In this document: positions 430 to 44,223 of the stretch, piece by piece
Layout: each line of letters opens with the position of its first letter
Position numbering within the stretch: the first letter of the stretch is position 1
From: Bacteroidia bacterium
GTDB taxonomy: Bacteria; Bacteroidota; Bacteroidia; NS11-12g; UBA955
DNA: 64,000 nt
NCBI GenBank assembly: GCA_040403495.1
Contig: JBBAKM010000004.1
Location: 23,456 to 87,455 of the forward strand
Direction of reading: 5' to 3'
Notes under the pieces: generated by a model
Seen by the model: the letters and a program-made list of their open reading frames with translations, nothing else
Database searches by the model: none
What the model was told of the DNA's origin: nothing
Translations under genes and position numbers: made by a program

Positions 430-810
430 TTATATTGTTAAATTATCGTTTGTGTATTTGATAAGTGAATTAATAGATTTGGGTAATTTTTGAAGTGTTT
501 GTAATAGTTCGTTATATTCGCTTTCAGAAATTAAATTGCGGTGTTTAGATTTTTCGGTCCAATCGTATGATTCAAGTACAGAGCCTTTGCTGTATTGAAA
601 GAATTTGATTTTGTCTTTTTTATGAAATCGTCCAAAACCCTCTGCAATATTGGCGGAAATTGAATCAATGGCTCTAACAAATTGTTTTCCAACAGTATCT
701 CTAGCAAAAAAGTCCCATTTGATGACAATATCCCAAGTAAAGTTACTTAAGTCTTTTGAAATATTGTAAGCTTCTATTTGGCTTATTTTAAGATAATTTT
801 TTTCTGTCAT
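430..810 (-). CDS. Four-helix-bundle protein (23S rRNA intervening-sequence protein family, PF05635/TIGR02436-like).
   Basis: A 126-aa ORF with the characteristic ...ISANIAEGFGRFHKKDKIKFFQYSKGSVLE... core. It sits between pntAA and pntAB on the same strand. Confidence 0.7.
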   Translation of the reverse strand: MTEKNYLKISQIEAYNISKDLSNFTWDIVIKWDFFARDTVGKQFVRAIDSISANIAEGFGRFHKKDKIKFFQYSKGSVLESYDWTEKSKHRNLISESEYNELLQTLQKLPKSINSLIKYTNDNLTI

Positions 811-840: not shown

Positions 841-846
841 AATAAT

Positions 847-1959
847 TTATTTCTTCAAAATTTCTCCGTCTTTACAAATCAATGTTCCTTTGGTGATTTC
901 TTCTTCCATTTCCCATTTAAATCCTTCGTTATTTGCTAGGTGTATAAGGAAAGTGTAAATGTTTTTGGCATAACTTTCACTGGCGTTTTGAGATAATAGT
1001 GACGGTAAATTAGTTTCGCCCACTATTTTAACACCATGTTTCACAACGACTTTGCCAGCTTCACTTATTTCGCAATTGCCTCCTTGTTCTACTGCCATGT
1101 CCACAATAACACTGCCTAGTTTCATGGTTTTTACCATGTCTTCGGTTACTAAAATTGGTGCTTTTTTGCCAGGAATTAAGGCCGTTGTAATCACAACATC
1201 AGCAGCAGCTATGTGTTTGCCAAGTATTTCTCTTTGCTTTTTTAAGGTGTCATCACTGGTTTCTTTCACATAGCCACCTTCTATTTTTACATCTCCAGTA
1301 TCAAAACTAATGAATTTCCCCCCTAATGATTCCACTTGTTCTTTTGTTTCAGGTCTTATGTCGGTTACCTCAACCACAGCACCCAATCTTTTGGCTGTTC
1401 CAATAGCTTGCAAACCAGCTACACCTGCGCCAAAAATCAATACTTTTGAAGGAGTAATCGTTCCGGCAGCTGTCATTAACATTGGGAAAATTCTAGCCGA
1501 ATGGTGAGCGCCAAGCATAACCGCCTTGTAACCAGCCAAATTGGCTTGTGAACTTAATGCATCCATACTTTGTGCCCTCGAAATTCTCGGAATAGCATCC
1601 ATACTAAAAACCGTAATTTTCTTGGCGTTTAACTTTTCTATGAGCTCAGGATTGGTGAGGTGGTAAACAAAAGAAATTAAAGTAGAACCTTCCTTTAATA
1701 AATTGATTTCATCCTGATTGGGAGCATTAACTTTTAGTAATACATCCGATTTTTGACAAACGTCAGCATTTGAATTTAAAATTTCTGCTCCCGCTTGTTG
1801 GTAGTTGTCGTCGGAAAAATTAGACAAAGTGCCTGAACCAGTCTCTATGACACATTTAAAACCTGCTTTCACTAGGTTTTTAACCACATCAGGACTCATG
1901 GCAACTCTATTTTCGCCTTGTTTCGATTCTTTAATAGTACCTATTATCATCATGGGCAA
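847..1959 (-). CDS. pntA: NAD(P) transhydrogenase subunit alpha part 1 (AlaDH/PNT N- and C-domains).
   Basis: The 370-aa product has ENRVAMSP, a GAGVAGLQAIGTAKRLGA Rossmann motif and overall PntAA architecture. Confidence 0.9.
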   Translation of the reverse strand: MPMMIIGTIKESKQGENRVAMSPDVVKNLVKAGFKCVIETGSGTLSNFSDDNYQQAGAEILNSNADVCQKSDVLLKVNAPNQDEINLLKEGSTLISFVYHLTNPELIEKLNAKKITVFSMDAIPRISRAQSMDALSSQANLAGYKAVMLGAHHSARIFPMLMTAAGTITPSKVLIFGAGVAGLQAIGTAKRLGAVVEVTDIRPETKEQVESLGGKFISFDTGDVKIEGGYVKETSDDTLKKQREILGKHIAAADVVITTALIPGKKAPILVTEDMVKTMKLGSVIVDMAVEQGGNCEISEAGKVVVKHGVKIVGETNLPSLLSQNASESYAKNIYTFLIHLANNEGFKWEMEEEITKGTLICKDGEILKK

Positions 1960-2084
1960 ATGTAGAAAAAAAACAAGAGAGTATCGATGTCACATGTTAT
2001 TTTTTTAGCAAAAAGCTTAAATCAATTGGTTTTTATTACATTGTAATGGTTAAGATAAATTATTTTTTAAATTTTTAGTCCTCT

Positions 2085-2160
2085 TTATTCATTTTCCTTT
2101 GGTAGGTATGCAGCCTTGGATTAAGCGATGAGTACCAACCAATTTTTGTGGTCGTTCTGA
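2085..2160 (+). repeat. Conserved ~75-nt noncoding element, copy 1 (tcctttggtaggtatgcagccttggattaagcgatgagtaccaaccaatttttgtggtcg).
   Basis: It is ~75% identical to 3086-3165 in direct orientation. It contains a potential hairpin, TTGGAT...AACCAA, which in copy 2 reads TTGGCT...AGCCAA, a compensatory change. Confidence 0.6.
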
Positions 2161-2233
2161 TAATTAGGAGGCAACCTCACAAGGCTATCATTCAGAATTA
2201 GTATAGCTAAAATCAATAATGAGGGAGTCGGTT

Positions 2234-2854
2234 TTATTTTTCAATATTGTGTCTTACAAGATCCCAAACACGTATATTTTTGTTAGTTGAAGTATCAACG
2301 ATTTTTTTTCTTATGTAACCAACATTCATTGAAAAATAATAGTCAAAATTATATTTAGATACTGACGATCTCCTTCGTATGTCTTTATATGTCTTTCCTT
2401 TAATTTTAAAAGAATCAACAATATAAGATTTGCGGTCATAATATTCAAATGCATATATTCTTAGTAATTTAAAATTATTGTTTTCAATGTCATTAACTAC
2501 AATTTCGTCTGTTGATGGATTTTCATATAGTTTATATTTTGTTAAAGAAATAGTATCTTTATAGAATGAAGAATACAAATACATGTTTGAAGTTCTTAAA
2601 TGGTATTCGTATGAGCAATCATAACTTTTTTCTAGATAATCACTATAATCACTATTTATAACATATACTGAATCTATTGCTTTTGAAATGGTATCTTCAT
2701 AAATCCAATAGGAGTTTTTGTTGAAATATAAGCATTGATAATCTATATTAAATCTCCTGTCAAAGTATGTTAAATTACAAGGGTGATCATTTGGCTTACT
2801 CATACAAGATATCAAAAGTATCACGCTTGTAAATATATAATTTTTGTTTTTCAT
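2234..2854 (-). CDS. Hypothetical lipoprotein.
   Basis: The 206-aa product has a signal peptide plus lipobox (VILLISCMS) and is otherwise unrecognisable, Tyr/Asn-rich. It is flanked by the two copies of the conserved 75-nt element. Confidence 0.5.
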   Translation of the reverse strand: MKNKNYIFTSVILLISCMSKPNDHPCNLTYFDRRFNIDYQCLYFNKNSYWIYEDTISKAIDSVYVINSDYSDYLEKSYDCSYEYHLRTSNMYLYSSFYKDTISLTKYKLYENPSTDEIVVNDIENNNFKLLRIYAFEYYDRKSYIVDSFKIKGKTYKDIRRRSSVSKYNFDYYFSMNVGYIRKKIVDTSTNKNIRVWDLVRHNIEK

Positions 2855-3085
2855 AGTATGGTTAATTTAATTGGAGCTGTTGCTTGAAAAATGAATTTAC
2901 TTTTTTTAGTAACTTTTTGTTTTAAGAGTTAATACGCAAATATATTATTTATTATTTTTTTATTTAGCTATGGGCAAAATAATATCAATAATAGTTTAAA
3001 TCCTCATTTCCGAGGTTTTAGATATCGAAAAAGTTTTTTAATACGGCTTGTCTATTATGTGTTGGTGGGCAAACATCGTTTCACG

Positions 3086-3165
3086 TAAAAAGAATTTCTC
3101 CTTTGCTTGGTATGCAGCCTTGGCTTAAGGGATGAGTAACAGCCAATTTTTGTGGTCGGTCGCAA
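3086..3165 (+). repeat. Conserved ~75-nt noncoding element, copy 2 (tctcctttgcttggtatgcagccttggcttaagggatgagtaacagccaatttttgtggtcg).
   Basis: See copy 1. This copy lies ~150 nt upstream of ald. Confidence 0.6.
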
Positions 3166-3310
3166 TAACATAAGACTAATCATCAATCCAACCACTGTAA
3201 AAAACTTTTTACTTCTAAAATTTGCCTTACTTTTTTCACGGAAAAAGAATTTTTTTTTGAGGGGATAAAAAATTACTTTTGCACCACCTTAACAAAAAAT
3301 AAATAATAAT

Positions 3311-4426
3311 ATGATTATCGGTGTTCCAAAAGAAATTAAAAATAACGAAAATAGAGTTGCTGTAACGCCAGCAGGTGTGAGTGATTTCGTTAGACATGGC
3401 CATACAGTTTATGTGCAACATACTGCTGGAAATGGAAGTGGTTTTAGTGATGAAGAATATACTGAAGCTGGAGCGACTATTTTGTCAACAATCGAAGAAG
3501 TATATGCCATTGCTGAAATGATTGTTAAAGTAAAAGAACCAATCGAAAGCGAATACAAACTGATTAAAAAAGGTCAATTGTTATTTACTTACTTTCACTT
3601 TGCTAGCTATGAGCCATTAACACATGCAATGATTGCAAGTGGTGCTACTTGTTTAGCTTATGAAACTGTTGAGAAAAACGACCGTTCATTGCCTTTGTTA
3701 GTGCCTATGAGCGAAGTAGCTGGTAGAATGTCTATTCAACAAGGGGCTAAATATTTAGAAAAACCAATGGGTGGAAGAGGTATTTTATTAGGTGGTGTTC
3801 CGGGTGTTAAACCAGCAGAAGTATTGGTATTAGGCGGTGGAATTGTGGGAACACAAGCTGCTAAAATGGCTGCAGGTATGGGCGCTCAGGTTACTATCAT
3901 GGATATTTCTATTCCACGTTTACGTCAGTTAGACGATATTATGCCTGCTAACGTTCAAACGATGTTCAGTAACTCATACAACATTAAAGCGGCTATCAAA
4001 ACTGCCGATTTAGTGATTGGTGGCGTTTTGATTCCAGGTGCAAAAGCGCCACACTTAATTACCAAAGATAATTTAAGTTCAATGAAAAAAGGTTCTGTAT
4101 TGGTGGACGTTGCTGTAGACCAAGGTGGATGCTTCGAAACAACTAAACCTACTACTCACGCTGACCCAATTTATGTAATAGATGATGTTATTCACTATTG
4201 CGTTGCCAATATGCCAGGAGCAGTTCCTTACACTTCAACTTTAGCTTTAACAAATGCAACTTTACCGTATGCTATTCAATTGGCAAATCAAGGTTGGAAA
4301 ACAGCTTGTTCAAGCAATAATGAATTGAAATTAGGTTTAAATGTGGTTGATGGAAAAGTGGTTTACAAAGCCGTTTCTGATGCTTTCAATTTACCTTACA
4401 CGCCAGTTGAAGAAGTGTTAAATTAA
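3311..4426 (+). CDS. ald: L-alanine dehydrogenase.
   Basis: The 371-aa product has MIIGVPKEIKNNENRVAVTP at the N-terminus, a GGGIVGTQAAKMAAGMGA NAD-binding loop and full-length AlaDH similarity. Confidence 0.9.
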   Translation: MIIGVPKEIKNNENRVAVTPAGVSDFVRHGHTVYVQHTAGNGSGFSDEEYTEAGATILSTIEEVYAIAEMIVKVKEPIESEYKLIKKGQLLFTYFHFASYEPLTHAMIASGATCLAYETVEKNDRSLPLLVPMSEVAGRMSIQQGAKYLEKPMGGRGILLGGVPGVKPAEVLVLGGGIVGTQAAKMAAGMGAQVTIMDISIPRLRQLDDIMPANVQTMFSNSYNIKAAIKTADLVIGGVLIPGAKAPHLITKDNLSSMKKGSVLVDVAVDQGGCFETTKPTTHADPIYVIDDVIHYCVANMPGAVPYTSTLALTNATLPYAIQLANQGWKTACSSNNELKLGLNVVDGKVVYKAVSDAFNLPYTPVEEVLN

Positions 4427-4450
4427 TTTTTATTTCACATAATTAAAAAA

Positions 4451-4477
4451 GGCGATACGTTTGTATCGCCTTTTTTT
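4451..4477. terminator. Rho-independent terminator, bidirectional between the convergent ald and cyt-b5-like genes.
   Basis: The hairpin GGCGATACgtttGTATCGCC is followed by TTTTTTT on the + strand and preceded by an A-run. Confidence 0.75.
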
Positions 4478-4494
4478 GTAAAAAAAATGTCATT

Positions 4495-4722
4495 TTATTC
4501 AAGTTCGCCAATTTTTGTAAACTTGTTAAATACTGATTCGGAATGTGGCGCATGTGCTAGTTCTTTTGTTAAATCCTGACCAGCCCAGTGCTCGTAATGC
4601 TTGCCATTGCGCCATAGTCGGCTCTCCGTAACATCATAAATATTTCCTTTATATGCCACCCAAATTTCGGGTTTGTCTTGCCCATTTCGCAGGGACAGCT
4701 GTTGTAGCGTGTATTTTTTCAA
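4495..4722 (-). CDS. Cytochrome b5-like heme/steroid-binding domain protein.
   Basis: The 75-aa product carries ...HYEHWAGQDLTKELAHAPHSESVF..., typical of small cyt-b5-like domain proteins. Confidence 0.55.
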   Translation of the reverse strand: MKKYTLQQLSLRNGQDKPEIWVAYKGNIYDVTESRLWRNGKHYEHWAGQDLTKELAHAPHSESVFNKFTKIGELE

Positions 4723-4776
4723 AGTGTTATTTCCTTTTTTTGTTTTAAATTTGAATTCTACAAAGATATTACAGAT

Positions 4777-5928
4777 TTGAAATACAGATTGTTTTTTAGT
4801 TTAATAATTGTTTACATGGCTTGTGTCTTTGGCTGGTGGTTGTATTCCTTTATTTCTTTGGTCCGTTCTGAATACACTTTAGAAAAAGAAAATTTAAACC
4901 TAAATGCTTTACTCATCAGAAAGCGATTGTCCCTCGACTTAGAATCAATGAATAATGACTCTAAACTTAGTCCATATCAATTTTATTTAAAAAATAAATC
5001 GATGGTTGATTCTACTATTCAAAAGTTGAATGAAGAATTGTCAACAGAAACTTATTTAATTGTCAAAGACACAAACGCATCATTTTCGGGACTTTATGAT
5101 GTAGTTGTTCATCCAAGGGAGTTTAAACAAAAAGAGAAAAGATACAACTCTAAAAAAAGAGCTTATTATTCTGAGGTCTTGTTTTTTGGCCTTTTAGTTA
5201 TAGCAGGTTCCGTTTGGATTTTCACCAAATTAGAATCTTTACTTAAGTTGAATAAACTGCAAAACAACTTCCTTTTGTCCATTACACATGAGCTAAAAAC
5301 CCCATTGGCTGCTATAAAATTAAGTAGTGAAACCTTGTTAAAGAGGAATTTAGACCCTGAAATGTCTAAACAAATTGTATCACAAACATTGAGTAATGCC
5401 GAGCGGTTGAATGATTTGATAGACAATGTTTTGTTAGCCACCAATATCGACAGTCAAACCTATCAGTTTAAAATGCAATCGCTCAATCTGTCCGATTTAA
5501 TACACGAAACGGCTGATGTTATTTTTGTAGAACCTCATTTTACAGGACAATTGAATATTGAAACCGACAGTCAACGAATTTATGGAGATGAATTGGCTAT
5601 TAAATTGGTTCTTAGTAACATATTCAACAATGCAATTAAGTATGGTGGTGAAAATGTAGTGGTTGATGTAAAAACAGAAACAGAACGCAATACAGAAAAG
5701 TTAATTATTTCTGACAATGGTATAGGGATTGATGTGAAAGAATCGAAACAGATATTTAAGAAATTTTACCGAGTAGGAGACGAAGAAACGCGTGAAACAA
5801 AAGGGACAGGTTTGGGGTTATACATTGTAAAAGAGATTCTTAAATACCACAAAGCGAAAATTGAAATAAAACCTAATGTGCCCAAAGGGACACAGTTTAT
5901 AATAACCTTTAAAAAATTAAAAATATGA
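4777..5928 (+). CDS. Sensor histidine kinase (HisKA + HATPase_c).
   Basis: The product has N-terminal TM segments, an H-box ITHELKTPLAAIKL, an N-box NAIKYGG and a G-box GTGLGLYIVK. Confidence 0.85.
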   Translation: MKYRLFFSLIIVYMACVFGWWLYSFISLVRSEYTLEKENLNLNALLIRKRLSLDLESMNNDSKLSPYQFYLKNKSMVDSTIQKLNEELSTETYLIVKDTNASFSGLYDVVVHPREFKQKEKRYNSKKRAYYSEVLFFGLLVIAGSVWIFTKLESLLKLNKLQNNFLLSITHELKTPLAAIKLSSETLLKRNLDPEMSKQIVSQTLSNAERLNDLIDNVLLATNIDSQTYQFKMQSLNLSDLIHETADVIFVEPHFTGQLNIETDSQRIYGDELAIKLVLSNIFNNAIKYGGENVVVDVKTETERNTEKLIISDNGIGIDVKESKQIFKKFYRVGDEETRETKGTGLGLYIVKEILKYHKAKIEIKPNVPKGTQFIITFKKLKI

Positions 5929-6629
5929 CCAAAAGAATAATGTTAGTGGAAGATGAATCAAGTTTGCACGACTTATTAAAGTTGAATCTAGAACTTGATG
6001 GCAACAAGGTAGTTGGCGTTAAAGACGGAGAAACAGCTATTAAAAAATTCAATGACCAGCAGTTTGATTTGGTTATTTTAGATGTGATGATACCTGGAAT
6101 TAATGGTTTAAATGTATGCGAAAGTATTCGTTTGAAAGATGGCAATGTGCCTATTTTGTTTTTATCAGCCAAAAGTAGACCGGAAGACAGAATAGCGGGT
6201 TTGAAAAAAGGTGCCGATGATTATTTAACCAAACCATTCAACTTGGAAGAATTGCAGTTAAGGGTTAATAATTTGCTTAATAGACGTCAAATGCAAGGCA
6301 CTACTATGGCGCAAAACCATGGTCTCAAAGAGTTTTCATTTGGTCCAAACTATATCAATTTTGACAATCACGAAGCCAAAGGAGTAAATGGCACATACAC
6401 TTTAACCAAAAAAGAAGTAATGTTACTTAAGCTATTAATAGAACACAAGGGCGAAATAGTAAGCAGAGAGAAAATATTACAAACAGTTTGGGGTTATTCG
6501 GTTTATCCATCTACCAGAACGATTGATAATTTCATACTTTCATTTAGAAAATATTTTGAATTAGACCCTAAAAATCCGCAATACATTATCTCAATCAGAG
6601 GTGTTGGCTATATGCTTGATTTTAAATAA
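5925..6629 (+). CDS. OmpR-family response regulator (REC + winged-helix trans_reg_C).
   Basis: The product has MLVEDESSL...DLVILDVMIPGINGL in the receiver domain and a C-terminal ...ISIRGVGYMLDF winged helix. The start overlaps the HK stop (ATGA). Confidence 0.9.
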   Translation: MTKRIMLVEDESSLHDLLKLNLELDGNKVVGVKDGETAIKKFNDQQFDLVILDVMIPGINGLNVCESIRLKDGNVPILFLSAKSRPEDRIAGLKKGADDYLTKPFNLEELQLRVNNLLNRRQMQGTTMAQNHGLKEFSFGPNYINFDNHEAKGVNGTYTLTKKEVMLLKLLIEHKGEIVSREKILQTVWGYSVYPSTRTIDNFILSFRKYFELDPKNPQYIISIRGVGYMLDFK

Positions 6630-6724
6630 GTTGCGCAATGTCATAATACTGTCATTTTTGAACTTGTTTTGAAATAAACAAGTAATAAAACGTAATTTTG
6701 TAACCACTTAAAATCTCTTTAAAA

Positions 6725-7987
6725 ATGAAAAAAATAGCAAGCATATTCTTCTCTCTCTTTGTTGCTTCTTTTGCAGCACAATCTCAATGTCCTGTAACTG
6801 ATAGTACTCTTATGGGTGCAGGCTCAATCAATGATGTTTATTACAGTTTAAAAAACGGGGTTGTCAAGACAGTTTCAAACAAAAATTGGCATTTGGCATT
6901 TTCGGTAATGCGTAGTCAGTTCCCAGGAAATCCATCTACAGGTGTAGCAGTTCGTTTAAATTCTGCAGGCAATAATATGAAGTTAGTAAGGTTACCCGCC
7001 ACACAAAATCCAGCAAATTGGAGAAGCATAGATACTACAGGCATGTATGCTTTGCCAGAACTAATTGATTCTGATAGTACTTGGTTTTCTACTGCATTCA
7101 CAAAGGGTTACTCATCTGCAGACCCATTTAATTTTATTTGGGGTGCTTACAACATGTCATCCAAACATGTTGATGGAACTAACGTGTATATTATGTTCAA
7201 CAAAGCAGATAATATCTACAAAAAAGTATTTATTAGGCAAGTCACTTTTGATTCTATGTGGAGTGTAGTGGTTTCAAACTTAGACAATACAGATTCTAAT
7301 TTTGTTCAAATTAGAAAAAACGCATATCCAAACAGAATGTTTGTTTATTACAATGCAGTAACCAATGAAGTTTTGGACAGAGAACCAGCGAATAACTCTT
7401 GGGATTTGGTTTGGACTAAATACACCACATTTGCAGTAAGTACCCAAGGCAGTGGATTGTTTCCTTTGGTTGGTGTGTTAAGTAATTTAGGCGTTCAGGT
7501 TGCAAAAAACATAGGTAAGAAATGCGATCAAGTATGGTTGTCAACCAAAACAGCACAAGTGAATCCAAAAATATCCTTGATAGGTGGTGATTGGAAATTG
7601 CACATGGGTGGTGGTGTTTTTTCAATAGCAGATACCTTTGTTTATTTTATCACAAGTGGAAATACTACTCATAAATTAACATTCAAAGGGTATATTGGAG
7701 GAGCAACGGGTAAATCAACATTCAATTTGTATGAGGCTACTTTGTCAAACAATGAATTGTCATCAACTCCACAAATTAAAGTAGTTCCAAATCCAATTAA
7801 TGGTTTAGGTGAAATTTTAACAGATTCAAAAGTTGAGAAAATCACAATTCAGAATTTGCAAGGTCAGGTTATTTTAGAAAATTCACTGTCAAATTCATTT
7901 GATATTTTAAATTATGCAAGTGGTATATATCTAATGACCATTCAAACAGATAAAGGATTAACTAAATTGAAACTGATAAAACAATAA
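6725..7987 (+). CDS. Secreted HmuY-like domain protein with a T9SS C-terminal sorting domain.
   Basis: The product has a signal peptide, a WDLVWTKY motif reminiscent of HmuY-family proteins and a C-terminal ~80-aa Por-secretion-type tail (ILNYASGIYLMTIQTDKGLTKLKLIKQ). It lies adjacent to a TonB-dependent receptor. Confidence 0.5.
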   Translation: MKKIASIFFSLFVASFAAQSQCPVTDSTLMGAGSINDVYYSLKNGVVKTVSNKNWHLAFSVMRSQFPGNPSTGVAVRLNSAGNNMKLVRLPATQNPANWRSIDTTGMYALPELIDSDSTWFSTAFTKGYSSADPFNFIWGAYNMSSKHVDGTNVYIMFNKADNIYKKVFIRQVTFDSMWSVVVSNLDNTDSNFVQIRKNAYPNRMFVYYNAVTNEVLDREPANNSWDLVWTKYTTFAVSTQGSGLFPLVGVLSNLGVQVAKNIGKKCDQVWLSTKTAQVNPKISLIGGDWKLHMGGGVFSIADTFVYFITSGNTTHKLTFKGYIGGATGKSTFNLYEATLSNNELSSTPQIKVVPNPINGLGEILTDSKVEKITIQNLQGQVILENSLSNSFDILNYASGIYLMTIQTDKGLTKLKLIKQ

Positions 7988-36025: not shown

Positions 36026-36373
36026 TTACTTTATTTTATTGATAAGCTTTTGATTTTGATCTCTCAAGTATTTATTTTCTTCTTTCAATAGCTTAATTTC
36101 GTTTTCTTGAATCATTAATTGATGGATATATCCATAATTGTAATTAACTGAGTTTTCTGAATTATTGAAATTGTTAGTTACGTTATTGCTGAGAAGTTCA
36201 TTAAAATCGATTTCATAAATTTTAGCAAATTTAATCAACTTAGAAATATCTGGTTTAATTTTGCCAGTTTCAATTTTACTGTAATCTGATTGTTCAATTC
36301 CAAGCTCTGATGCAATTTTTTGCTGATCCCAACCTTTTTCTAGTCTTAATTTTTTTAGATTTTTGTGTATCAT
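36026..36373 (-). CDS. XRE-family helix-turn-helix transcriptional regulator with a C-terminal coiled-coil.
   Basis: The product has LKKLRLEKGWDQQKIASELGIEQSDYSKIETGK (HTH_3). It is divergent from the first lipoprotein/OMP module. Confidence 0.8.
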   Translation of the reverse strand: MIHKNLKKLRLEKGWDQQKIASELGIEQSDYSKIETGKIKPDISKLIKFAKIYEIDFNELLSNNVTNNFNNSENSVNYNYGYIHQLMIQENEIKLLKEENKYLRDQNQKLINKIK

Positions 36374-36486
36374 TATTAATATATTTGTTTTATTTTTTTA
36401 GGAAATTATGAAGACTCAATAAATTTAATTATTTTCGATTCGTTATTTTAAATATTGATTCAAACACTAATGAAAAAAACTCGCAT
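36347..36486 (+). promoter_or_regulatory. Leader/promoter block, copy 1, shared by both lipoprotein-OMP modules.
   Basis: Bases 36391-36486 (tatatttgttttatttttttaggaaattatgaagactcaataaatttaattattttcgattcgttattttaaatattgattcaaacactaatgaaaaaaactcgc) are near-identical to 39936-40034. Confidence 0.6.
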
Positions 36487-37713
36487 TTGAAAGGTAATAA
36501 AATTTTATACATTTTAATTGTTTTTCTATCAATGTCATGTTACAAAGAATACAAGATAGAAAATAAAAGTTATTATGTAATGACTGGAGGGATAGTTAAT
36601 GGCTATCCCCCTTTTTTTATCCTATATAAATGTGATTTGTTTTCTACTACAAAACTTCCATATTCTGAATTTGATATAGTAGTTTCAGATGATTTCGGGA
36701 ATGTAGATTCAATGGTTAACGGATTGTTCAATAAAATAATTGGTATACCTGGACGTTCATATTTAGTTAAATGGAAGCTTAAGTTTGATGATACATGGAA
36801 TCAGTTTAGTAAGCAAATGCCGGCTTTTAATATAGATGCTTATAGTGGGTATGTTGAAAATTCAAAGTATAAAGTAAATTCTCCAGATAATTATGAATAT
36901 TTTTTGGCTTACAAATCAAACAATTCAGATTATTTCAATTTGTTTATAGATGGGTTATTCAACCCAATTGATATAGGTAGTGCATTTTTTAAATTAGATA
37001 AATCAAACAATACACTAAACATCTGGCCACCTGCAAATATAGAGATTTCAAATTCAGATAGAAAGGGTATAGAATTTACAAATTATAATTGTTACAAACC
37101 ATTTATTTGGGAAAAAAAGTATTTTAAGTTTGGAAATAAAACAGATGAATTTTTTTTAAAAGACATTTTGTCATTATACTCTGTAAATCAAAATGATATG
37201 CAGAATATAGTGAATGGGAGTTTTAATTTTGCTTATCAAGATCAGCCGTTGTTTATAGGCGAATCGGTAAAATATGATACAAAAAGGAATAATCAATATA
37301 CTATAACTTATTTCATTACAAGTTATAAGGATTTTAATTTTGATAAAGTTGTTGACACCTCTGGTTCAGTTGATTTTGAAATAAAACTAAATAATCAACC
37401 ACTAGATTTAACTAAATATGAAATTGGAAATGTTGGATTTAACATATTGGATAATGATAATTTTAAATTTAATAATATTTACAAATTCTTCGATTCAAAT
37501 AAAACAATCGGCAAATTGTTTAATAAAGATTTTGTAGATTATGTTTTTAATAAAGAAAGTAAAAATAATCAATGTGTTGTTAAGTCAAGTTATAATATTA
37601 GAGTAGTAGTTTATTTTTATGAAAGGTCAAATCCTAATATTAGAAAAACACATTTTGAATTATTAAATTATGATAAAAGCGTTAATAAAATCCAAATAAA
37701 TTTGATTGATTGA
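36487..37713 (+). CDS. Lipoprotein of unknown function (module 1, partner A).
   Basis: The 408-aa product has a lipobox FLSMSCYKEYK and is a ~25-30% identical paralog of the 40035-41210 product, with shared motifs KWKL, NIWPP and CYKPFIW. Its stop overlaps the downstream OMP start (ATGA). Confidence 0.6.
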   Translation: MKGNKILYILIVFLSMSCYKEYKIENKSYYVMTGGIVNGYPPFFILYKCDLFSTTKLPYSEFDIVVSDDFGNVDSMVNGLFNKIIGIPGRSYLVKWKLKFDDTWNQFSKQMPAFNIDAYSGYVENSKYKVNSPDNYEYFLAYKSNNSDYFNLFIDGLFNPIDIGSAFFKLDKSNNTLNIWPPANIEISNSDRKGIEFTNYNCYKPFIWEKKYFKFGNKTDEFFLKDILSLYSVNQNDMQNIVNGSFNFAYQDQPLFIGESVKYDTKRNNQYTITYFITSYKDFNFDKVVDTSGSVDFEIKLNNQPLDLTKYEIGNVGFNILDNDNFKFNNIYKFFDSNKTIGKLFNKDFVDYVFNKESKNNQCVVKSSYNIRVVVYFYERSNPNIRKTHFELLNYDKSVNKIQINLID

Positions 37714-39866
37714 TGTTTGATGTCAAATTTATATTATTTTTTGTTTTTCTGCTGGGTTGTCAGTTATTAAAAGGGCAAAGAGATAATATAGTAGTTGTGA
37801 AGGTTGTTAGTTTTAATAGTCAAGAACCAATATTTGGAATTAAACTAAATATTGAAGATAAAGATTATCAAACAAATTCAGATGGCATTGCAAATGTTTA
37901 TCTCAAAAATAGTATTGGGTTTTTGAAAATATACAAAGGGGATAGTTTAATTAAAACCAGTCGATTGTTTGTTTATAGAGATACATCTATAACAATCGTT
38001 ATTGATGAACAGTATTTTGAAATTGAAAAATTTAAGTTAGTTGGTAATAAGAGCTTTAAAGAATTAGATAACAAAATTTCAATACCTATGAATTTGATAA
38101 AGACTTCGGTTTTGCCTTTATCAACAAATGATCCAATTCATCTTTTAAAAATGCTTCCCGGTGTTTCTACAGCTCAAGAAATGAATTCAAATATAAATGT
38201 AAGAGGCGCATCTTCATATAATACATGTATTTATCTTGATAATGTTCCTGTTCCAAATTTATCTCATAGCTTTGGATTAATTAGTTTTTATGATAATAAC
38301 ATTATAAGGCATATTGATTATTTTAACAATCAAATTTCTTCAGCTTTTGGTACAAGGGGGTCAAGTTATTTCAAGTTTTTTTTAAAAGACCCATTACTTA
38401 ATAAAAATAAAGGTGAATTTATAATTAATCCATTTTTTGTGACTGGTAACGCCAATTTAAAAATGCTAGAAAATAAATTTGGTTTATTTGTTAATTATAG
38501 AAAATCGATATTGTCTGAGCAATATAATGCATCTTTTCCGCTTTTTTCAAATTTTCAAGATGTGTTAGTGAAATCAAAATTTAAAATTAAAGAGAACTCA
38601 CATTTGTCAATATTTTATATGGATAGTTATGACAAAAGTTATAACTCATATGGTTTTGGATTAAATGTAAAAGATAGTGTTTTATCAAGGTTTAAAACAT
38701 TTTCAGTTGTGTTTAATAAAATGAATAAAAGGGGCTTTTCTCAAACAATTAGTGGGTTTATAAAATCTCAATTTCTGTCTAGAACAAACAATAACTTCCT
38801 TGATGTCACATTGAATAATAAACTAGATGAATATAATGTATCGTATTTGAATAGCAAATCCTTAAATAAGTATTTTAAATTTCTTTTTGGATTTGAAAAT
38901 CAATTTCATAAAAGTGAAAATAAAATTGATTCTTTTAATTTTAATAATCAAAAAAACAACATAAGTTCTTTGTTTTTTGATATTGAATATAAAAAAAATA
39001 ATTACAAGGTGTTTGCTAATGTTAGACCAAATTACTTTGTTTCCCTCAATGAAATATATTTTGAAGCAAGATCTGGAATATTGAGAAAATTTAATAATCT
39101 GGGATTATATACAGAGGTAAATAGGTATGTAAACTCAATTCATTCGTTATCAAATAATCTTTTTGCAATTCCTGAAGATTATAGATTTTTACCTACAAAA
39201 GTGTTTAAGCCGCAAACAACAAATGAGATACTTATTGGTTTGAAATATTCAAACCTTAGAATAAACTTCTCATCAAATTTTTACTATAGGGTTTACGATA
39301 ATAGCTATGATTACAAAAAACTTTATTTATCTCCAATTAACAAACTTTCGAATATATCAAAAGTGGATTTTAATAGTTATGGTATAGAAAATTTTGTTAG
39401 CATTAAGATAAGTAAGTCAAATTCAATGAATTTGTCATATACATATTCAAAATCAACAATGTATAATGATTCAATTAATTTAGGAATAAAATATGTTTCA
39501 AATTTTGATAGGCCTCACATTTTAAATGCATTTTATATGTTTAAATATAAAAGAATTACATTTACAACTTCTTTTATATTTAAAAGTGGTAGGCCATATA
39601 CAGCGCCATTGTATGTTTTGAATAATATCCCCTTTTATTCAAACAGGAATGAGTTTAGGTTGCCTGTTTTTCATAAACTAGACATCGGAGTTCTCTATGA
39701 ATTTAAATCAAAGGTTTCTCAAACTCTACAGTTTCACCTGTATAATGTCTATTCACGTAATAATATTTATGCTGTTGTTTTTAATTCTTCTTTTTCTAAT
39801 CCTGAATTTAAGTATTTTTCAGCTTTCCCATTTCTACCATCCTTCTCTTACAGTATTAAATTTTAG
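37710..39866 (+). CDS. Outer-membrane beta-barrel protein with an N-terminal CarbopepD_reg-like domain and a TonB-dependent-receptor plug-like domain (SusC-like, short form; module 1, partner B).
   Basis: The product has a signal peptide and the plug-like region SVLPLSTNDPIHLLKMLPGVSTAQEMNSNINVRGASSYNTCIYLDNVPV. The C-terminus ...AFPFLPSFSYSIKF ends in Phe. The last ~50 nt are identical to the 41207-43366 gene. Confidence 0.7.
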   Translation: MMFDVKFILFFVFLLGCQLLKGQRDNIVVVKVVSFNSQEPIFGIKLNIEDKDYQTNSDGIANVYLKNSIGFLKIYKGDSLIKTSRLFVYRDTSITIVIDEQYFEIEKFKLVGNKSFKELDNKISIPMNLIKTSVLPLSTNDPIHLLKMLPGVSTAQEMNSNINVRGASSYNTCIYLDNVPVPNLSHSFGLISFYDNNIIRHIDYFNNQISSAFGTRGSSYFKFFLKDPLLNKNKGEFIINPFFVTGNANLKMLENKFGLFVNYRKSILSEQYNASFPLFSNFQDVLVKSKFKIKENSHLSIFYMDSYDKSYNSYGFGLNVKDSVLSRFKTFSVVFNKMNKRGFSQTISGFIKSQFLSRTNNNFLDVTLNNKLDEYNVSYLNSKSLNKYFKFLFGFENQFHKSENKIDSFNFNNQKNNISSLFFDIEYKKNNYKVFANVRPNYFVSLNEIYFEARSGILRKFNNLGLYTEVNRYVNSIHSLSNNLFAIPEDYRFLPTKVFKPQTTNEILIGLKYSNLRINFSSNFYYRVYDNSYDYKKLYLSPINKLSNISKVDFNSYGIENFVSIKISKSNSMNLSYTYSKSTMYNDSINLGIKYVSNFDRPHILNAFYMFKYKRITFTTSFIFKSGRPYTAPLYVLNNIPFYSNRNEFRLPVFHKLDIGVLYEFKSKVSQTLQFHLYNVYSRNNIYAVVFNSSFSNPEFKYFSAFPFLPSFSYSIKF

Positions 39867-40034
39867 ATTTTTGTGTATCATTATTAAAAAATAGAATATA
39901 TTCATCAAAAATTGAATTTTTTGATGAATATATTTGTTTTATTTTTTTGGGAAATTATGAAGACTCAATAAATTTAATTATTTTCGATTCGTTATTTTAA
40001 ATATTGATTCAAACACTAATAAAAAAACTCGCCT
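39862..40034 (+). promoter_or_regulatory. Leader/promoter block, copy 2, with a palindrome-containing insertion.
   Basis: This copy matches copy 1 but inserts aaaatagaatatattcatcaaaaattgaattttttgatgaatatatt, which contains the perfect inverted repeat TTCATCAAAAAttgaaTTTTTTGATGAA. It also retains the first ~7 codons of the XRE gene in reverse complement (gtgtatcat). Confidence 0.6.
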
Positions 40035-41210
40035 ATGAAATTTAAAATCATTCTTTTTTTTATCGTTTTAACTCAAATAAGTTGTTACAAAGATTACGAC
40101 TTAATAAAGCAGGAATATTATTTTTTAAGGGGTTTGTTCGTCAATGGACAATCCCCTTCCTTTCAATTGTATTTTCAAAACACACAAGGCGATTATAAAG
40201 TAAATTATACTGACTATCAACTAGAGGTCATTAATGAAAATAATTCTGTTTTTAAAATGAATTCAAATGGTAACTTTTCTTTTTTATCTATAAAGCCTAA
40301 TTCTAAATACAAAGTGAGATGGAAATTAAATAGCGAGAAAGAATGGCACGAGCTTACCAAAGAGTCTATTAACTATGAAACAACGTTAAATGACAAATCA
40401 TTTGTTAAAGTCGAAAATGAATTGTTTGTTAATAGAGATAGAAATGATTCTTTTGTTTATTTTTTATACAATCCATATGATAGAAAGACTTTTGAAGAAC
40501 AGTTTTTAAAATCTTTTTTGATTGAATATCCCGATGCATTTCTTGAATTAAATCAAACAGACAATGCATTGATTTTATGGCCACCTTCCAATAAATATTA
40601 TTTAGATAGATTTAAAAATTCAACTAACTTTTGCTTCAAACCATTCACTTGGAAAATGTTAAGTGGGCCTGTATATAGTAATTTTCAACTTTATAGTATG
40701 TCTAAATCGGATTTTCAATTTTATTATAATTTACATAAAAATGATGTAGGAAAAAATACGCCTTTGGCGGTTGGTGAAGGCATATTGTGGGATTACAGTA
40801 AAGACAATGTAAAAGCCAAAATAGTCAATATTAACAATTATAATAATATTAAAATCTTTGATTATGTTAACAGAGATGAAAGGTTGTATGTTGATTTTTT
40901 AATAAATGGCAACTCAATAGATACATTAAGTCATAGAATAATTAGCGTTAATATGAGATTTGAAAAATCCGAAAATTCTTTTCCAGTTATGGGATGGCAA
41001 AATAAAACTGTTTATGCTGGTACTAAAGAATATTTTGCGCATCACTTCAACGAGAATTTCAATAAACCATGTGGTTATTTTAACAATATTTATAAATTGA
41101 GGTTTTTTGTATATCTTCATGATTTAAAAACAAACATAAGAACAAGTATTGAAATGCCAACATTCAACTACACAAAAGGCGAAAGTGTAGTTTTAGATAT
41201 TAAACCATGA
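40035..41210 (+). CDS. Lipoprotein of unknown function (module 2, partner A).
   Basis: The 391-aa product has a lipobox LTQISCYKDYD and is paralogous to the 36487-37713 product. Its stop overlaps the downstream OMP start (ATGA). Confidence 0.6.
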   Translation: MKFKIILFFIVLTQISCYKDYDLIKQEYYFLRGLFVNGQSPSFQLYFQNTQGDYKVNYTDYQLEVINENNSVFKMNSNGNFSFLSIKPNSKYKVRWKLNSEKEWHELTKESINYETTLNDKSFVKVENELFVNRDRNDSFVYFLYNPYDRKTFEEQFLKSFLIEYPDAFLELNQTDNALILWPPSNKYYLDRFKNSTNFCFKPFTWKMLSGPVYSNFQLYSMSKSDFQFYYNLHKNDVGKNTPLAVGEGILWDYSKDNVKAKIVNINNYNNIKIFDYVNRDERLYVDFLINGNSIDTLSHRIISVNMRFEKSENSFPVMGWQNKTVYAGTKEYFAHHFNENFNKPCGYFNNIYKLRFFVYLHDLKTNIRTSIEMPTFNYTKGESVVLDIKP

Positions 41211-43366
41211 AAAAAATATTTGTATTTTCTCTTTTATTTCTGTGTTTAGTATTAAAAAGCCAAACATTACATCAAATAAATTTTAAGTTTTTAGACCAAG
41301 CAAACAATCAACCGATTTCTAATTTACTAGTCAAATGCCAAAATACTGCAGCGTATAGTAATTCAGATGGTTTTGTTTCTGTGTTCTTACATTCAGATAC
41401 CTGTACGTTTCGTTTTTATGAATCAGATATATATTTACAAGAGTACAAATTAAAAGCATATAATGACACTTTTATAGTATTGAAAATAGAACGCATTTAT
41501 GAAATAAGTAAGTTTAAGCTAAGGGTAAATCACCAGCCCATAACTGCTAAAAATAACAGAATTTCTATAGGTCAAAATACACTTCAGTCTATTTCATTGC
41601 CACTAAGTACCAACGACCCAATTCATTTATTAAAAACATTGCCCGGGGTTAATACCAGTCAAGAAATGAATGCTAATTTAAATATTAGAGGTGGAAGTGC
41701 TTACAATACAGTCTTTTATTTAGATAATATTCCTGTGCCTAATTTAACTCATAGTTTTGGTTTATACAGTTTTTTTGATTTGAATACTATCAGACAAATT
41801 GATTATTTCAATAATAATGTAAGTAGTGAGTATGGCTCTAGGGGTTCAAGTTATATAAAATTTTATCTTAAAGACCCAATTGCTAATAAATCAACATCAG
41901 AGCTGAATATTAATCCTTTTTTTGTTAGTGGTAATGTTAATTTGAAGTTAAAAAAAGAAAAATTGGGTGTTTTTGTTAATTACAGAAAATCAATTTTCAA
42001 CACTGAATATAATGTTCTTTTCCCTCTTTTTTCGGAGTTTTCAGATTTATTGATTAAAACAAAATATAACTTTAACAAAAGGTCGTCATTAAGTTTAATA
42101 TACACCGATAATCAAGACAGGGTTACTGATTTTAATGCAACGGGAATTAACTCAAGAGATAGCTTACAATGGCAGTTTAAAGCCTTTTCATCACAATTTG
42201 ATTTAATCTCTAAAACTGGCGTAAAACATGAAGCAATTTTTTTCATTAAGAATCAAGTATTGTCAAGGCAATCTTTGAATAATCAGTTTAATTACAATAA
42301 CGAATTTAATGAAATGAACTTTAAATATTCGTTAAAGAAAAGTTTTAGCCAGAATTTTAAATCATCATTAGGCTTAGAACATCAAATTCATCAAAATAAT
42401 AATTCAATAGCTTTTAACAATAAAACCATCAATAATTTGAATGTTTTATCACTTTATACGGATAACTCATACCAATTTAAAAACTTGATTTTTAATGCTA
42501 ATTTAAGGTTGAGTAATTTTATAGAATTAAAGAAAACCTATTTGGAAAAAAGGTTAAGTGTAAATTATAAGCTCAATAAGTCGAATTTTATTGCGGAATA
42601 TAATTCTTTTGTTAATTCTACACATAGTTTGGTCAACAATGTTTTTCCCGTGCCTGATGATTTTAAGTTTTTGGCGAATAAAGATTTTTTGCCTCAGGTA
42701 ACTAATGAGTGGTTGATTGGCTATAATGTTCAACTAAAAAAATCAAATCTACAATTAAATGCTTATCATAGAAATTATCTAAATAGCTATGATTACAGAA
42801 GATTGAATATTGATAATTATGCCTCATTTAGCAACGTTTTTAAGATGAATCATATCAGCTATGGGGTTGAAGCTTTGTCAAATATAAACATTAACGAAAA
42901 GCATAGTTTTGTTTTGTCCTATACTTATTCAAAATCTACGATGCAAAATGATTCAGTCAATTTAGGTTTATTATATCCAACTAGTTACGACAGGCCACAT
43001 AATTTTAATTTATTGTATAGTTTTAAATATAAAAGATTTACGTTTACTAGTACTTTTACTTGGCAAAGTGGTAGGGTTGCTACGGTACCTTTATTTGTAG
43101 CTTACGCTAATGCTACCCCAATTTATTCTCTAAGAAATGAGTATCGTTTAAAACCTTTTCATAAAATGGATATTGGTTTTCAATACAGTTTTAGAAATAA
43201 AGGTAAAATTAAACAGTTTTTAAATGTTAATTTGTACAATGTATATTTTCGTCAAAATACTTATGCTGTTGTATGGGAAAGTAACAACAATACTAGATCT
43301 GCTGAACTAAAATATCTAACAGCTTTCCCATTTCTACCATCCTTCTCTTACAGTATTAAATTTTAG
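41207..43366 (+). CDS. Outer-membrane CarbopepD/plug/beta-barrel protein (module 2, partner B).
   Basis: The 719-aa product is ~65% identical to the module-1 protein in the plug region (ISLPLSTNDPIHLLKTLPGVNTSQEMNANLNIRGGSAYNTVFYLDNIPV). It has the identical C-terminal TAFPFLPSFSYSIKF. Confidence 0.7.
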   Translation: MKKIFVFSLLFLCLVLKSQTLHQINFKFLDQANNQPISNLLVKCQNTAAYSNSDGFVSVFLHSDTCTFRFYESDIYLQEYKLKAYNDTFIVLKIERIYEISKFKLRVNHQPITAKNNRISIGQNTLQSISLPLSTNDPIHLLKTLPGVNTSQEMNANLNIRGGSAYNTVFYLDNIPVPNLTHSFGLYSFFDLNTIRQIDYFNNNVSSEYGSRGSSYIKFYLKDPIANKSTSELNINPFFVSGNVNLKLKKEKLGVFVNYRKSIFNTEYNVLFPLFSEFSDLLIKTKYNFNKRSSLSLIYTDNQDRVTDFNATGINSRDSLQWQFKAFSSQFDLISKTGVKHEAIFFIKNQVLSRQSLNNQFNYNNEFNEMNFKYSLKKSFSQNFKSSLGLEHQIHQNNNSIAFNNKTINNLNVLSLYTDNSYQFKNLIFNANLRLSNFIELKKTYLEKRLSVNYKLNKSNFIAEYNSFVNSTHSLVNNVFPVPDDFKFLANKDFLPQVTNEWLIGYNVQLKKSNLQLNAYHRNYLNSYDYRRLNIDNYASFSNVFKMNHISYGVEALSNININEKHSFVLSYTYSKSTMQNDSVNLGLLYPTSYDRPHNFNLLYSFKYKRFTFTSTFTWQSGRVATVPLFVAYANATPIYSLRNEYRLKPFHKMDIGFQYSFRNKGKIKQFLNVNLYNVYFRQNTYAVVWESNNNTRSAELKYLTAFPFLPSFSYSIKF

Positions 43367-43399
43367 ATTTATTCATTGTAGGTAGGGGCTTTAAGTTAT

Positions 43400-43720
43400 A
43401 TGTTTAAACAAGCCAAGTTGCTAACACAAAAAATATTGCAAATGAAAAAAAATAGTATCTTTGAGTATTATTTTTTTCAAATGAAAGCTGAGCACAATGT
43501 AAATAGTCAAAAATTAGAACTTATTCAATGGCTTTCTACTATAGAAGATCAATCTACCATTGAAAAGCTGATTGAATTTAAAAATAAAGAAAATAAAGAT
43601 TGGTGGGATTCACTCTCTAAAAAAGAAGAACAATCAATAAATAAAGGAATTTTAGATGCAGAAAAAGGAAATCTAAAATCCCATTCAATTGTAAGAAACA
43701 GGTATGAAAAGTGGTTATAA
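43400..43720 (+). CDS. Putative antitoxin-like small protein (addiction-module-component-like C-terminus).
   Basis: The 106-aa product has ...DWWDSLSKKEEQSINKGILDAEKGNLKSHSIVRNRYEKWL. It sits immediately upstream of a decayed ParE/RelE-like ORF. The true start may be the internal Met MKAEHN. Confidence 0.35.
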   Translation: MFKQAKLLTQKILQMKKNSIFEYYFFQMKAEHNVNSQKLELIQWLSTIEDQSTIEKLIEFKNKENKDWWDSLSKKEEQSINKGILDAEKGNLKSHSIVRNRYEKWL

Positions 43721-43730
43721 CGTATTCTAG

Positions 43731-44002
43731 ACTGAAAATGCCCTAATAGAATTAGAAGAAACTATTAAATACTTAGAAACCAATTGGACAAATATTGAAA
43801 TCCAAAATTTATTTGAAAATTTAGATAGAACGATAACCCTACTTTCTAAAAATCCATTAATTTTCCCATTAAGTCATAGAAAAAAGGTTAGAAGAGTGGT
43901 TTTCTCTCTTTAAATACTTTGTATTACAGAGTTGTAGATGGTAGGGTAGAAATATTATCGTTTTTTTCAAATAGGCAAAACCCTGATAAAATCAACATTT
44001 AG
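43731..44002 (+). pseudogene. RelE/ParE-family toxin remnant with no start codon and a -1 frameshift near 43905.
   Basis: Frame 1 reads ENALIELEETIKYLETNWTNIEIQNLFENLDRTITLLSKNPLIFPLSHRKKVRRVVFSL*. The shifted frame reads LYYRVVDGRVEILSFFSNRQNPDKINI*. The second half matches the conserved RelE/ParE C-terminus (Y-R-V-x-D-x-V-E-I-L-x-I-x-H-x-R-Q-x-P). Confidence 0.5.
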
Positions 44003-44022
44003 TAATAGTAATAGCTTGTTAC

Positions 44023-44100
44023 TCTTTTTCTAATCCTGAATTTAGGCACTTTACAGCTTCCACATTTCTACCATCCTTCTCTTACAGTATTAAATTTTAG
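44023..44100 (+). pseudogene. Orphan 3'-terminal fragment of a third lipoprotein-partner OMP paralog.
   Basis: The sequence ctttttctaatcctgaatttaggcactttacagcttccacatttctaccatccttctcttacagtattaaattttag aligns to 39788-39866 and 43289-43366. It translates in frame to SFSNPEFRHFTASTFLPSFSYSIKF*. Confidence 0.65.
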
Positions 44101-44223
44101 ATTTAATTGTCTTTTTGTCCTGCTATTCACAGTAATAGTGTTATTTAATAGAAGTGTTCCTTTAAACAAACTCATTTTGGAACACTATTTGGATAGCTTG
44201 AATAATAAATAATAGTATTAAAT

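Follow-up and report, generated by a model that had tools for sequence, protein, structure and literature searches.

The pntA-ald locus

In this work we consider a stretch of 64,000 nucleotides (nt) from an uncultured Bacteroidota lineage (assembly GCA_040403495.1, contig JBBAKM010000004.1, positions 23,456 to 87,455 of the forward strand), which is called the window below and in which positions are counted from its first letter. Near the left end of the window, the spacer between the divergent genes pntA and ald contains a short element, called E here, in two direct copies, E1 and E2, that bracket a lipoprotein gene. The gene context described in the initial annotation of this DNA is borne out, with a pntA-type gene at 847-1953 on the minus strand, the lipoprotein gene at 2234-2854 on the minus strand and ald at 3311-4426 on the plus strand. 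The features of the locus are as follows, where the bit scores are those of a covariance model built from the four known copies of E, and L001, L002, L004 and L099 are contigs of close relatives.

847..1953, minus strand: pntA (transhydrogenase alpha-1, AlaDH/PNT family), an open reading frame (ORF) with Pfam AlaDh_PNT_N/C; conserved left anchor of the variable spacer
1954..2006, no strand: pntA-proximal block, kept in all haplotypes; 89% identical to L004 and 79% to L001 over 1941-2006/2021
2007..2091, no strand: left variable filler LV1, which aligns poorly to the filler LV2 of L002, L004 and L099
2092..2157, plus strand: element copy E1, 66 nt, 100.3 bits
2158..3078, minus strand: cassette C, consisting of the lipoprotein gene, its 3' flank and a 224-nt upstream region; its position is taken by segment R in the L099 allele
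2234-2854, minus strand: lipoprotein gene, an ORFan with lipobox LISC
3079..3097, plus strand: first copy of a 19-nt repeat, TTTCACGTAAAAAGAATTT; end of the L002-type allele, with its terminal T-run making the new junction to E2
3096..3161, plus strand: element copy E2, 90.1 bits, with six private substitutions
3162..3233, plus strand: segment R, the filler after the single E in the lipoprotein-free L099; 64 of 72 aligned positions identical, plus an 8-nt indel
3234..3252, plus strand: second copy of the 19-nt repeat, TTTCACGGAAAAAGAATTT, overlapping the all-haplotype block that starts at 3241
3241..3310, plus strand: block upstream of ald, with 97-100% conservation across all haplotypes, starting with AAAAAGAATTT
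3311..4426, plus strand: ald (alanine dehydrogenase), conserved right anchor

The Bacteroidetes -7 promoter consensus is TAnnTTTG (PMC2483708). The minus strand of the 1954..2006 block contains TACATTTG, a -7 box of this type, which we take as a putative pntA promoter, and the ald upstream block contains TACTTTTG, a TAnnTTTG -7 box at 3274-3281, so that the 3241..3310 block is likely to be the ald promoter. Because this conserved block with TACTTTTG lies downstream of E2, E2 is located outside the likely ald promoter, on its upstream side. The distance from E1 to the pntA start is 138 nt, and that to the stop codon of the lipoprotein gene, past which E1 lies, is 76 nt; between E2 and the ald ATG there are 149 nt. 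Since pntA and ald are divergent and the two copies are direct repeats, the copies face their genes in opposite orientation. It is also noted that a 50-nt inverted repeat (1901-1950 / 3311-3360, 72% complementary) reflects the paralogous, divergently encoded N-termini of PntA and Ald.

The two copies of E

E1 (2092-2157) and E2 (3096-3161) are identical at 58 of 66 positions (88%) in direct orientation, with a start-to-start distance of 1004 nt, and on both sides their homology ends abruptly, the flanks being unrelated. The initial annotation had correctly recognised two direct copies, while its boundaries (2085-2160 and 3086-3165) and its identity of ~75% are corrected here to 66 nt and 88%, the lower identity having resulted from the inclusion of the unrelated flanks. 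A 30-nt pattern of the E core, searched with up to three mismatches, finds only E1 and E2 in the 64 kilobases (kb) of the window, where 0.00 matches are expected from 100 shuffles. Two of the relatives, L002 and L099, carry one copy each, and E1 differs from the L002 copy at three positions and from the L099 copy at five, while E2 differs from every other copy at eight to nine. The identity to the relatives is 86-95% for E, 89% for R and 91% for C (over aligned positions, L002), i.e., E is conserved no better than R or C beside it. As a background, the window differs from the L002 and L099 lineages by 6-7% in ald DNA and by 17-19% in pntA DNA.

A coding role was considered for E and rejected: the minus-strand frame is open, yet all eight differences between E1 and E2 are non-synonymous in it, and in a plus-strand mini-ORF of seven codons (MQPWIKR) the changes between the copies are likewise non-synonymous only.

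A search for additional copies had been proposed together with the element, and none came to light in the window, the related loci or the collections searched. Exact-pattern scans of the E core (20-22 specified bases) gave zero matches each in genome, viral and metagenome contig collections, the metagenome set being evidently without the L002 and L099 samples, and BLASTN of 2080-3260 against plasmids and phages gave no match. Run on the window with filters off, the covariance model recovers E1 and E2 alone, the match that follows them being at 14 bits (E-value 0.4), and in 632 kb of fetched loci it finds the known copies only, none beyond the pntA-ald locus. A nucleotide profile of E (nhmmer) run against the window and the fetched loci returns the same known copies. 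E is absent as well from 80 ald loci taken from other species of Bacteroidota, which were searched with both the nhmmer profile and the covariance model; the best Ald identity among these loci is 85%, the source species having no close representative in that collection. Moreover, a fragment of a transfer RNA (tRNA) or transfer-messenger RNA (tmRNA) gene serving as an att site was looked for, and the window contains no tRNA or tmRNA genes. There is no evidence that E is a dispersed or mobile repeat.

Alleles of the spacer in close relatives

The comparison set consists of 11 distinct contigs of close relatives, i.e., ten with an identical Ald protein and, in addition, L101. E is absent from eight of these 11, and among the identical-Ald contigs at least five different fillers are found between pntA and ald. 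The arrangements are as follows.

L001, L003, L005 and L098: a 154-nt filler, no E
L004, L095 and L100: a different filler, LV2 plus 46 nt, no E
L099: LV2, one E and the 88-nt segment R; no lipoprotein gene
L002: LV2, one E and the lipoprotein cassette C
L006: the same as the window, and the one further contig with two copies
L101, the closest relative (98-99% identity in ald DNA): another lipoprotein gene, on the plus strand, and no E

The limits of the variation are shared by all haplotypes, being a block of ~55-65 nt by pntA and one of ~70 nt by ald. Among themselves the fillers show no detectable relationship. Local alignments of the fillers (L001-type, Z-type and L101) to E or to E plus R score within the range of shuffled sequences. 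On these scores we rejected the possibility that E or E plus R is one of the other fillers in diverged form, a weak MAFFT alignment not being evidence of homology. The relatives without the lipoprotein gene, to which the initial annotation had pointed as informative, do include such a case, namely the single-copy, lipoprotein-free allele of L099.

The lipoprotein gene of L101 (258-983, plus strand) encodes 241 amino acids that are 28% identical to the window protein (E-value 1e-7), and from such sequence comparisons the pntA-ald spacer appears to act as a hot spot for an ORFan lipoprotein family. This family is a tiny set of six clusters, all at least 72% identical, and the window protein has no Pfam match. 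Its homologues on L007, L008, L009 and L010 lie in four other contexts, those on L007-L009 also sharing ~110 nt upstream of the gene with the window, and E is absent next to all four. It is also observed that the homology between the window and L101 stops at ~4641 (L101 2485 onwards), just downstream of ald in the region of the Cyt-b5 gene, which suggests another strain-variable junction.

Collinearity and the junction between the alleles

The two single-copy alleles align collinearly to the window. L099 aligns twice, with its 386-1695 corresponding to window 845-2154 and its 1632-5466 to window 3095-6921, and because these two blocks overlap by 64 nt, the single E of L099 is matched twice, closing the left block as the counterpart of E1 and opening the right block as that of E2. 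The alignment of L002 runs to window 3097 and resumes at 3233, and 19 nt of L002 belong to both of its blocks; to this overlap corresponds the 19-nt direct repeat of the window, TTTCACGTAAAAAGAATTT (3079-3097) and TTTCACGGAAAAAGAATTT (3234-3252), with 18 of 19 positions identical. The window can thus be written as L099 plus 1004 base pairs (bp) flanked by a 66-nt repeat, or equally as L002 plus 155 bp flanked by a 19-nt repeat. Its order, E1-C-19mer followed by E2-R-19mer-ald, is that of an E-C allele followed by an E-R allele.

The sole new junction is located at window 3095-3099, where GAATTT is joined to CTCC, i.e., AAAAAGAATTT to CTCCTTTGC. This junction sits in T-runs that are present in both parental alleles (GAATTTTTTTTTGAG in L002 and GCTTTTTTTCCTTTGG in L099). 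The arrangement resembles the duplications that arise by recombination between alleles (PMC3240628), in that the insert is flanked by direct repeats that are single-copy in the parents, the single-copy parental alleles align collinearly to both sides, and the junction lies in microhomology, here the T-run. Unlike in those duplications, the event here is one that we infer, together with its direction and the recombination route, from three natural arrangements only. Among the genes called within ~5 kb, which comprise PNT subunits, 23S_rRNA_IVP, HepT/MNT, Cyt-b5, a two-component system, Por_Secre_tail and a TonB receptor, there is no recombinase or transposase.

It had also been suggested that the two copies are the duplicated target left by insertion of the lipoprotein gene. 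One part of this suggestion stands: the second copy occurs only together with the cassette, and the lipoprotein-free L099 has one copy. The other part, a duplication of the transposase type, does not. Known target-site duplications are identical and measure from a few bp to about 14 bp. The direct repeats flanking an inserted gene and the inverted repeats inside E do resemble a transposon target-site duplication, a miniature inverted-repeat transposable element (MITE) or a repetitive extragenic palindromic (REP) element. By contrast, 66 nt at 88% is too long and too diverged for a target-site duplication (the 19-mers being identical at 18 of 19), the insert lacks both a transposase and terminal inverted repeats, L002 has the lipoprotein gene with one copy only, and the second repeat, of 19 nt, marks the other way of reading the window. 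Moreover, in the sequences searched E is not multi-copy as REP elements and MITEs are.

Proposed origin of the two-copy arrangement

Based on these alignments, we consider it probable that the duplication of E is an incidental by-product of recombination in a hypervariable islet and that E is not an RNA regulator. In the mechanism that we propose, E would be non-essential filler DNA in the islet between the divergent pntA and ald of this lineage. This islet is bounded by the two blocks conserved in every haplotype, and its contents vary from strain to strain and do not align with one another; two of them, E-R (L099, without a gene) and E-C (L002, with the lipoprotein cassette), share E. An out-of-register join of an L002-type and an L099-type allele would then give the tandem E1-C-19mer followed by E2-R-19mer. 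Three routes can be envisaged for this join. In the first, an unequal or illegitimate crossover would occur at the T-run (AAAAAGAATTT joined to CTCCTTTG). In the second, the E-C allele, as a circle or fragment of 1004 bp, would integrate through the homology of E, in the manner of a Campbell-type integration. The third would be homology-facilitated illegitimate recombination, with integration through the E homology at one end and an illegitimate join at the other, which is an established route (PMC3240628). All three routes would lead to the same product, and the three arrangements would stay interconvertible, since either pair of direct repeats, of 66 nt or of 19 nt, would allow the deletion of what lies between.

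The locus can be compared with the replacement-type flexible genomic islets, i.e., strain-variable cassettes between conserved anchor genes. It shares with them the conserved flanks (the pntA block and the ald promoter block) and the unalignable fillers, of which there are at least five, including two lipoprotein genes that are distantly related and point in opposite directions. It is unlike them in being very small, with 0.15-1.3 kb and at most one gene. The case is an ordinary one.

Several points weigh against this explanation. Firstly, L006 shows no difference from the window over 8158 nt (100% identity) and possibly derives from the same sample, so that there is no clearly independent confirmation of the two-copy arrangement; a look-up by the exact PntA of the window likewise returned only the window-identical contig. 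Secondly, only four distinct E sequences are known, which gives low power to the tests for constraint and covariation. Thirdly, the sharp borders of E coincide with three breakpoints (LV1/LV2, C/R and the junction of the 19mer with E2), which could also indicate a site-specific process or selection on E. Fourthly, the L002 and L099 copies form a good hairpin with a T-tract after it and fold better than shuffled sequences on the minus strand, with z of -2.7 and -3.3, respectively, which may point to some structural role. Finally, the window type could have come from the joining of two alleles, or it could be the older form from which the other two derive by deletion. Note that if the window type is ancestral, with L099 and L002 derived by the 66-nt and the 19-nt deletion, respectively, such a join is still needed at its origin.

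With the explanation by recombination, the locus is a compact hypervariable islet with a conserved promoter as anchor at either end, in which ORFan lipoprotein genes would be exchanged among closely related freshwater-type Bacteroidota; it may interest students of strain-level surface variation and opens no long-standing question. It also carries a caution, namely that an intergenic repeat pair with a plausible hairpin beside paralogous genes can mimic a shared riboregulator, where the natural alleles show a recombination scar in dispensable filler.

Folding of E and a possible functional hairpin

The initial annotation had described a 6-bp hairpin followed by a T-run (TTTTTG), and both are indeed in the sequence. 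The compensatory change that it saw between the copies was overstated: an A.A mismatch is present in E1, L002 and L099, and only E2 has a C-G pair there, so that the change is one from mismatch to pair (C-G in one sequence, another state in three). The same substitutions of E2 disrupt two pairs of a longer outer stem of 10-11 bp, which is the dominant fold in the relatives. On the four copies RNAalifold gives an extended hairpin of 17 pairs with no pair changed on both sides, and the number of pairs changed on both sides is zero in the consensus fold, in the 6-bp hairpin and in the outer stem alike, four sequences giving this count low power. The folds of E1 and E2, on both strands, are no better than those of dinucleotide shuffles (z of -0.31, +0.46, -1.00 and +0.70), and these copies have one or two stem mismatches. 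By contrast, the L002 and L099 copies form a hairpin with an 11-bp stem followed by GUUUUUG (-17.0 and -18.6 kcal/mol), with z against shuffles on the plus strand of -1.2 and -1.4. Because the L002 and L099 copies fold cleanly and the window copies fold no better than shuffles, the hairpin exists in the better-preserved copies and is decaying in the window.

Searches of Rfam do not identify E. At the gathering score there is no match in the window, and at an E-value of up to 10 there is nothing overlapping E in 1900-3400, where the only matches are sub-threshold chance ones to two small nucleolar RNA models, to FopS and to RAGATH-25. The match to FopS, a small RNA family of Bacteroidetes, lies at 2844-2909 on the plus strand, antisense to the start codon region of the lipoprotein gene, and with 18.5 bits against a gathering score of 56 (E-value 7.1) it is probably due to chance.

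Among the alternatives to the origin by recombination, the one that survives best is that E is a functional hairpin, acting either on the plus strand as an intrinsic terminator or insulator for the ald promoter or on the minus strand as a 3'-end stabiliser of the lipoprotein mRNA, with the duplication having copied a working element. This could account for the clean hairpins of L002 and L099 and their minus-strand z, for the 17 pairs kept in the consensus fold and for the position of E1 shortly past the lipoprotein stop codon. The hairpin followed by a T-run in L002 and L099 is indeed like a Rho-independent terminator. The stem, however, is AT-rich with an interior of 22-24 nt, a scan for consensus terminators does not call E, and on the strand of the T-run, the plus strand, neither copy has a gene upstream. 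On the minus strand, what comes after the hairpin is an A-rich run and no U-run. Both window copies are degenerate, with stem mismatches and folds at the level of shuffles, and no covariation is seen. Moreover, most identical-Ald strains lack E, L099 has E without the lipoprotein gene, and the lipoprotein homologues elsewhere lack E. We therefore consider a functional hairpin unlikely as the explanation of the duplication, a terminator-like role being possible but unsupported.

E as a possible recombination site

Another alternative is that E is a site-specific recombination site similar to the attC sites of integrons, with the two copies bounding an integrated cassette of 1004 bp. E is an imperfect palindrome of about 60-66 nt located 3' of a strain-variable ORF, with direct copies bracketing that ORF, as expected from attC. 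The apparent crossover is at the extreme end of E, with each copy keeping its own body (E1 donor-like and E2 distinct), and different lipoprotein genes occupy the islet in different strains. Unlike in attC, there are no R''/R' cores, neither RYYYAAC nor GTTRRRY being found on either strand of any of the four copies with their 10-nt flanks, and no integrase or other recombinase is among the genes called nearby. E is unlinked to the ORF elsewhere, since the lipoprotein homologues in the four other contexts have no E, and the cassette of L101 sits in the same islet without it. Conversely, E occurs without a cassette in L099, and it is confined to this locus in the collections searched. Ordinary recombination explains the 19-nt repeat and the junction in the T-run more simply. 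An attC-like site is thus very unlikely. A bolder version would be that E serves for recombination in a system of cassette exchange, undescribed so far and independent of integrons, in uncultured Bacteroidota, in which a hairpin of ~63 nt, cut at one end, captures and swaps small surface-lipoprotein cassettes at the pntA-ald hot spot; to this we give only a slight chance.

Improbable alternatives: E as a shared regulator, or as an assembly artefact

The initial annotation had favoured a cis-regulatory RNA or a protein-binding site shared by the two loci of the AlaDH/PNT family, i.e., an RNA or operator common to the paralogous pntA and ald. In favour of this, each of the two genes has one copy in its upstream region, with 138 nt to the start of pntA and 149 nt to that of ald, and the core contains a small inverted repeat. 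The direct repeats, however, are in opposite orientation relative to the divergent genes, and E2 is upstream of, and outside, the ~70-nt block with the likely ald promoter, which every haplotype has kept. E is missing in most identical-Ald strains and in the 80 ald loci of other species, it has no Rfam match and, unlike a riboswitch or a cis-regulatory leader, shows neither a model match nor conservation nor covariation, and the mini-ORF that might be read in it changes only non-synonymously. The search with Rfam and covariance models, proposed as a check on the RNA, thus gave neither a family nor covariation. That E is a conserved regulatory RNA of ald or pntA is not supported; the shared-regulator explanation is already largely refuted, and we regard it as extremely improbable.

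Equally improbable is that the two-copy arrangement is a chimera of metagenome assembly from coexisting L002-type and L099-type strains. In its favour, both single-copy alleles exist in nature and L006, with its perfect identity, may come from the same data. Against it, neither single-copy allele contains the new junction AAAAAGAATTT-CT-CCTTTGC, a sequence that could not be made by a chimera of the assembly graph. Moreover, there are eight differences between E1 and E2 and one between the 19-mers, and the flanks belong to one lineage, with pntA and ald both continuous with the rest of the contig.

Other variable features of the lipoprotein gene and the neighbourhood

The lipoprotein alleles differ internally. 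In the L002 allele a run of about nine copies of the 9-nt unit ATAATCACT is located at 3420-3500, while the window has about two at 2640-2660, and this in-frame expansion makes up part of the length difference between the two alleles. In L010 the homologue (658-1290, 72% identical) lies directly upstream of a gene for an IS110-family transposase (1586-2947, DEDD_Tnp_IS110 and Transposase_20), which hints at one way in which the lipoprotein gene moves.

Within the pnt operon, a gene of the 23S_rRNA_IVP family (430-810, minus strand, Pfam E-value 1.4e-21) lies between pntA-alpha1 and the PNTB_4TM gene. It is present in L001, L006, L095 and L098 and absent from L003 and L005, and it is bracketed by 8-nt tandem repeats (ATTGTTRA) together with an array of the inverted partner, at 289-384 and 815-862. 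This gene looks like another small mobile or variable insertion. Just left of the window start, a toxin-antitoxin pair of the HepT/MNT type lies between the PNTB_4TM gene and pntB in L001 (1162-1777), L002 (251-866) and L004 (1649-2264) and is absent from L003 and L005. Because of these two insertions, the pnt operon is broken at two places by strain-variable genes.

Finally, we note a tandem duplication of ~3.5 kb at 36350-44110, where a gene pair encoding an unknown protein of ~400 amino acids and a TonB-dependent receptor of ~718 amino acids with a Plug domain occurs twice. In the same region a conserved block of 82 nt occurs three times, at 39789, 43289 and 44023.

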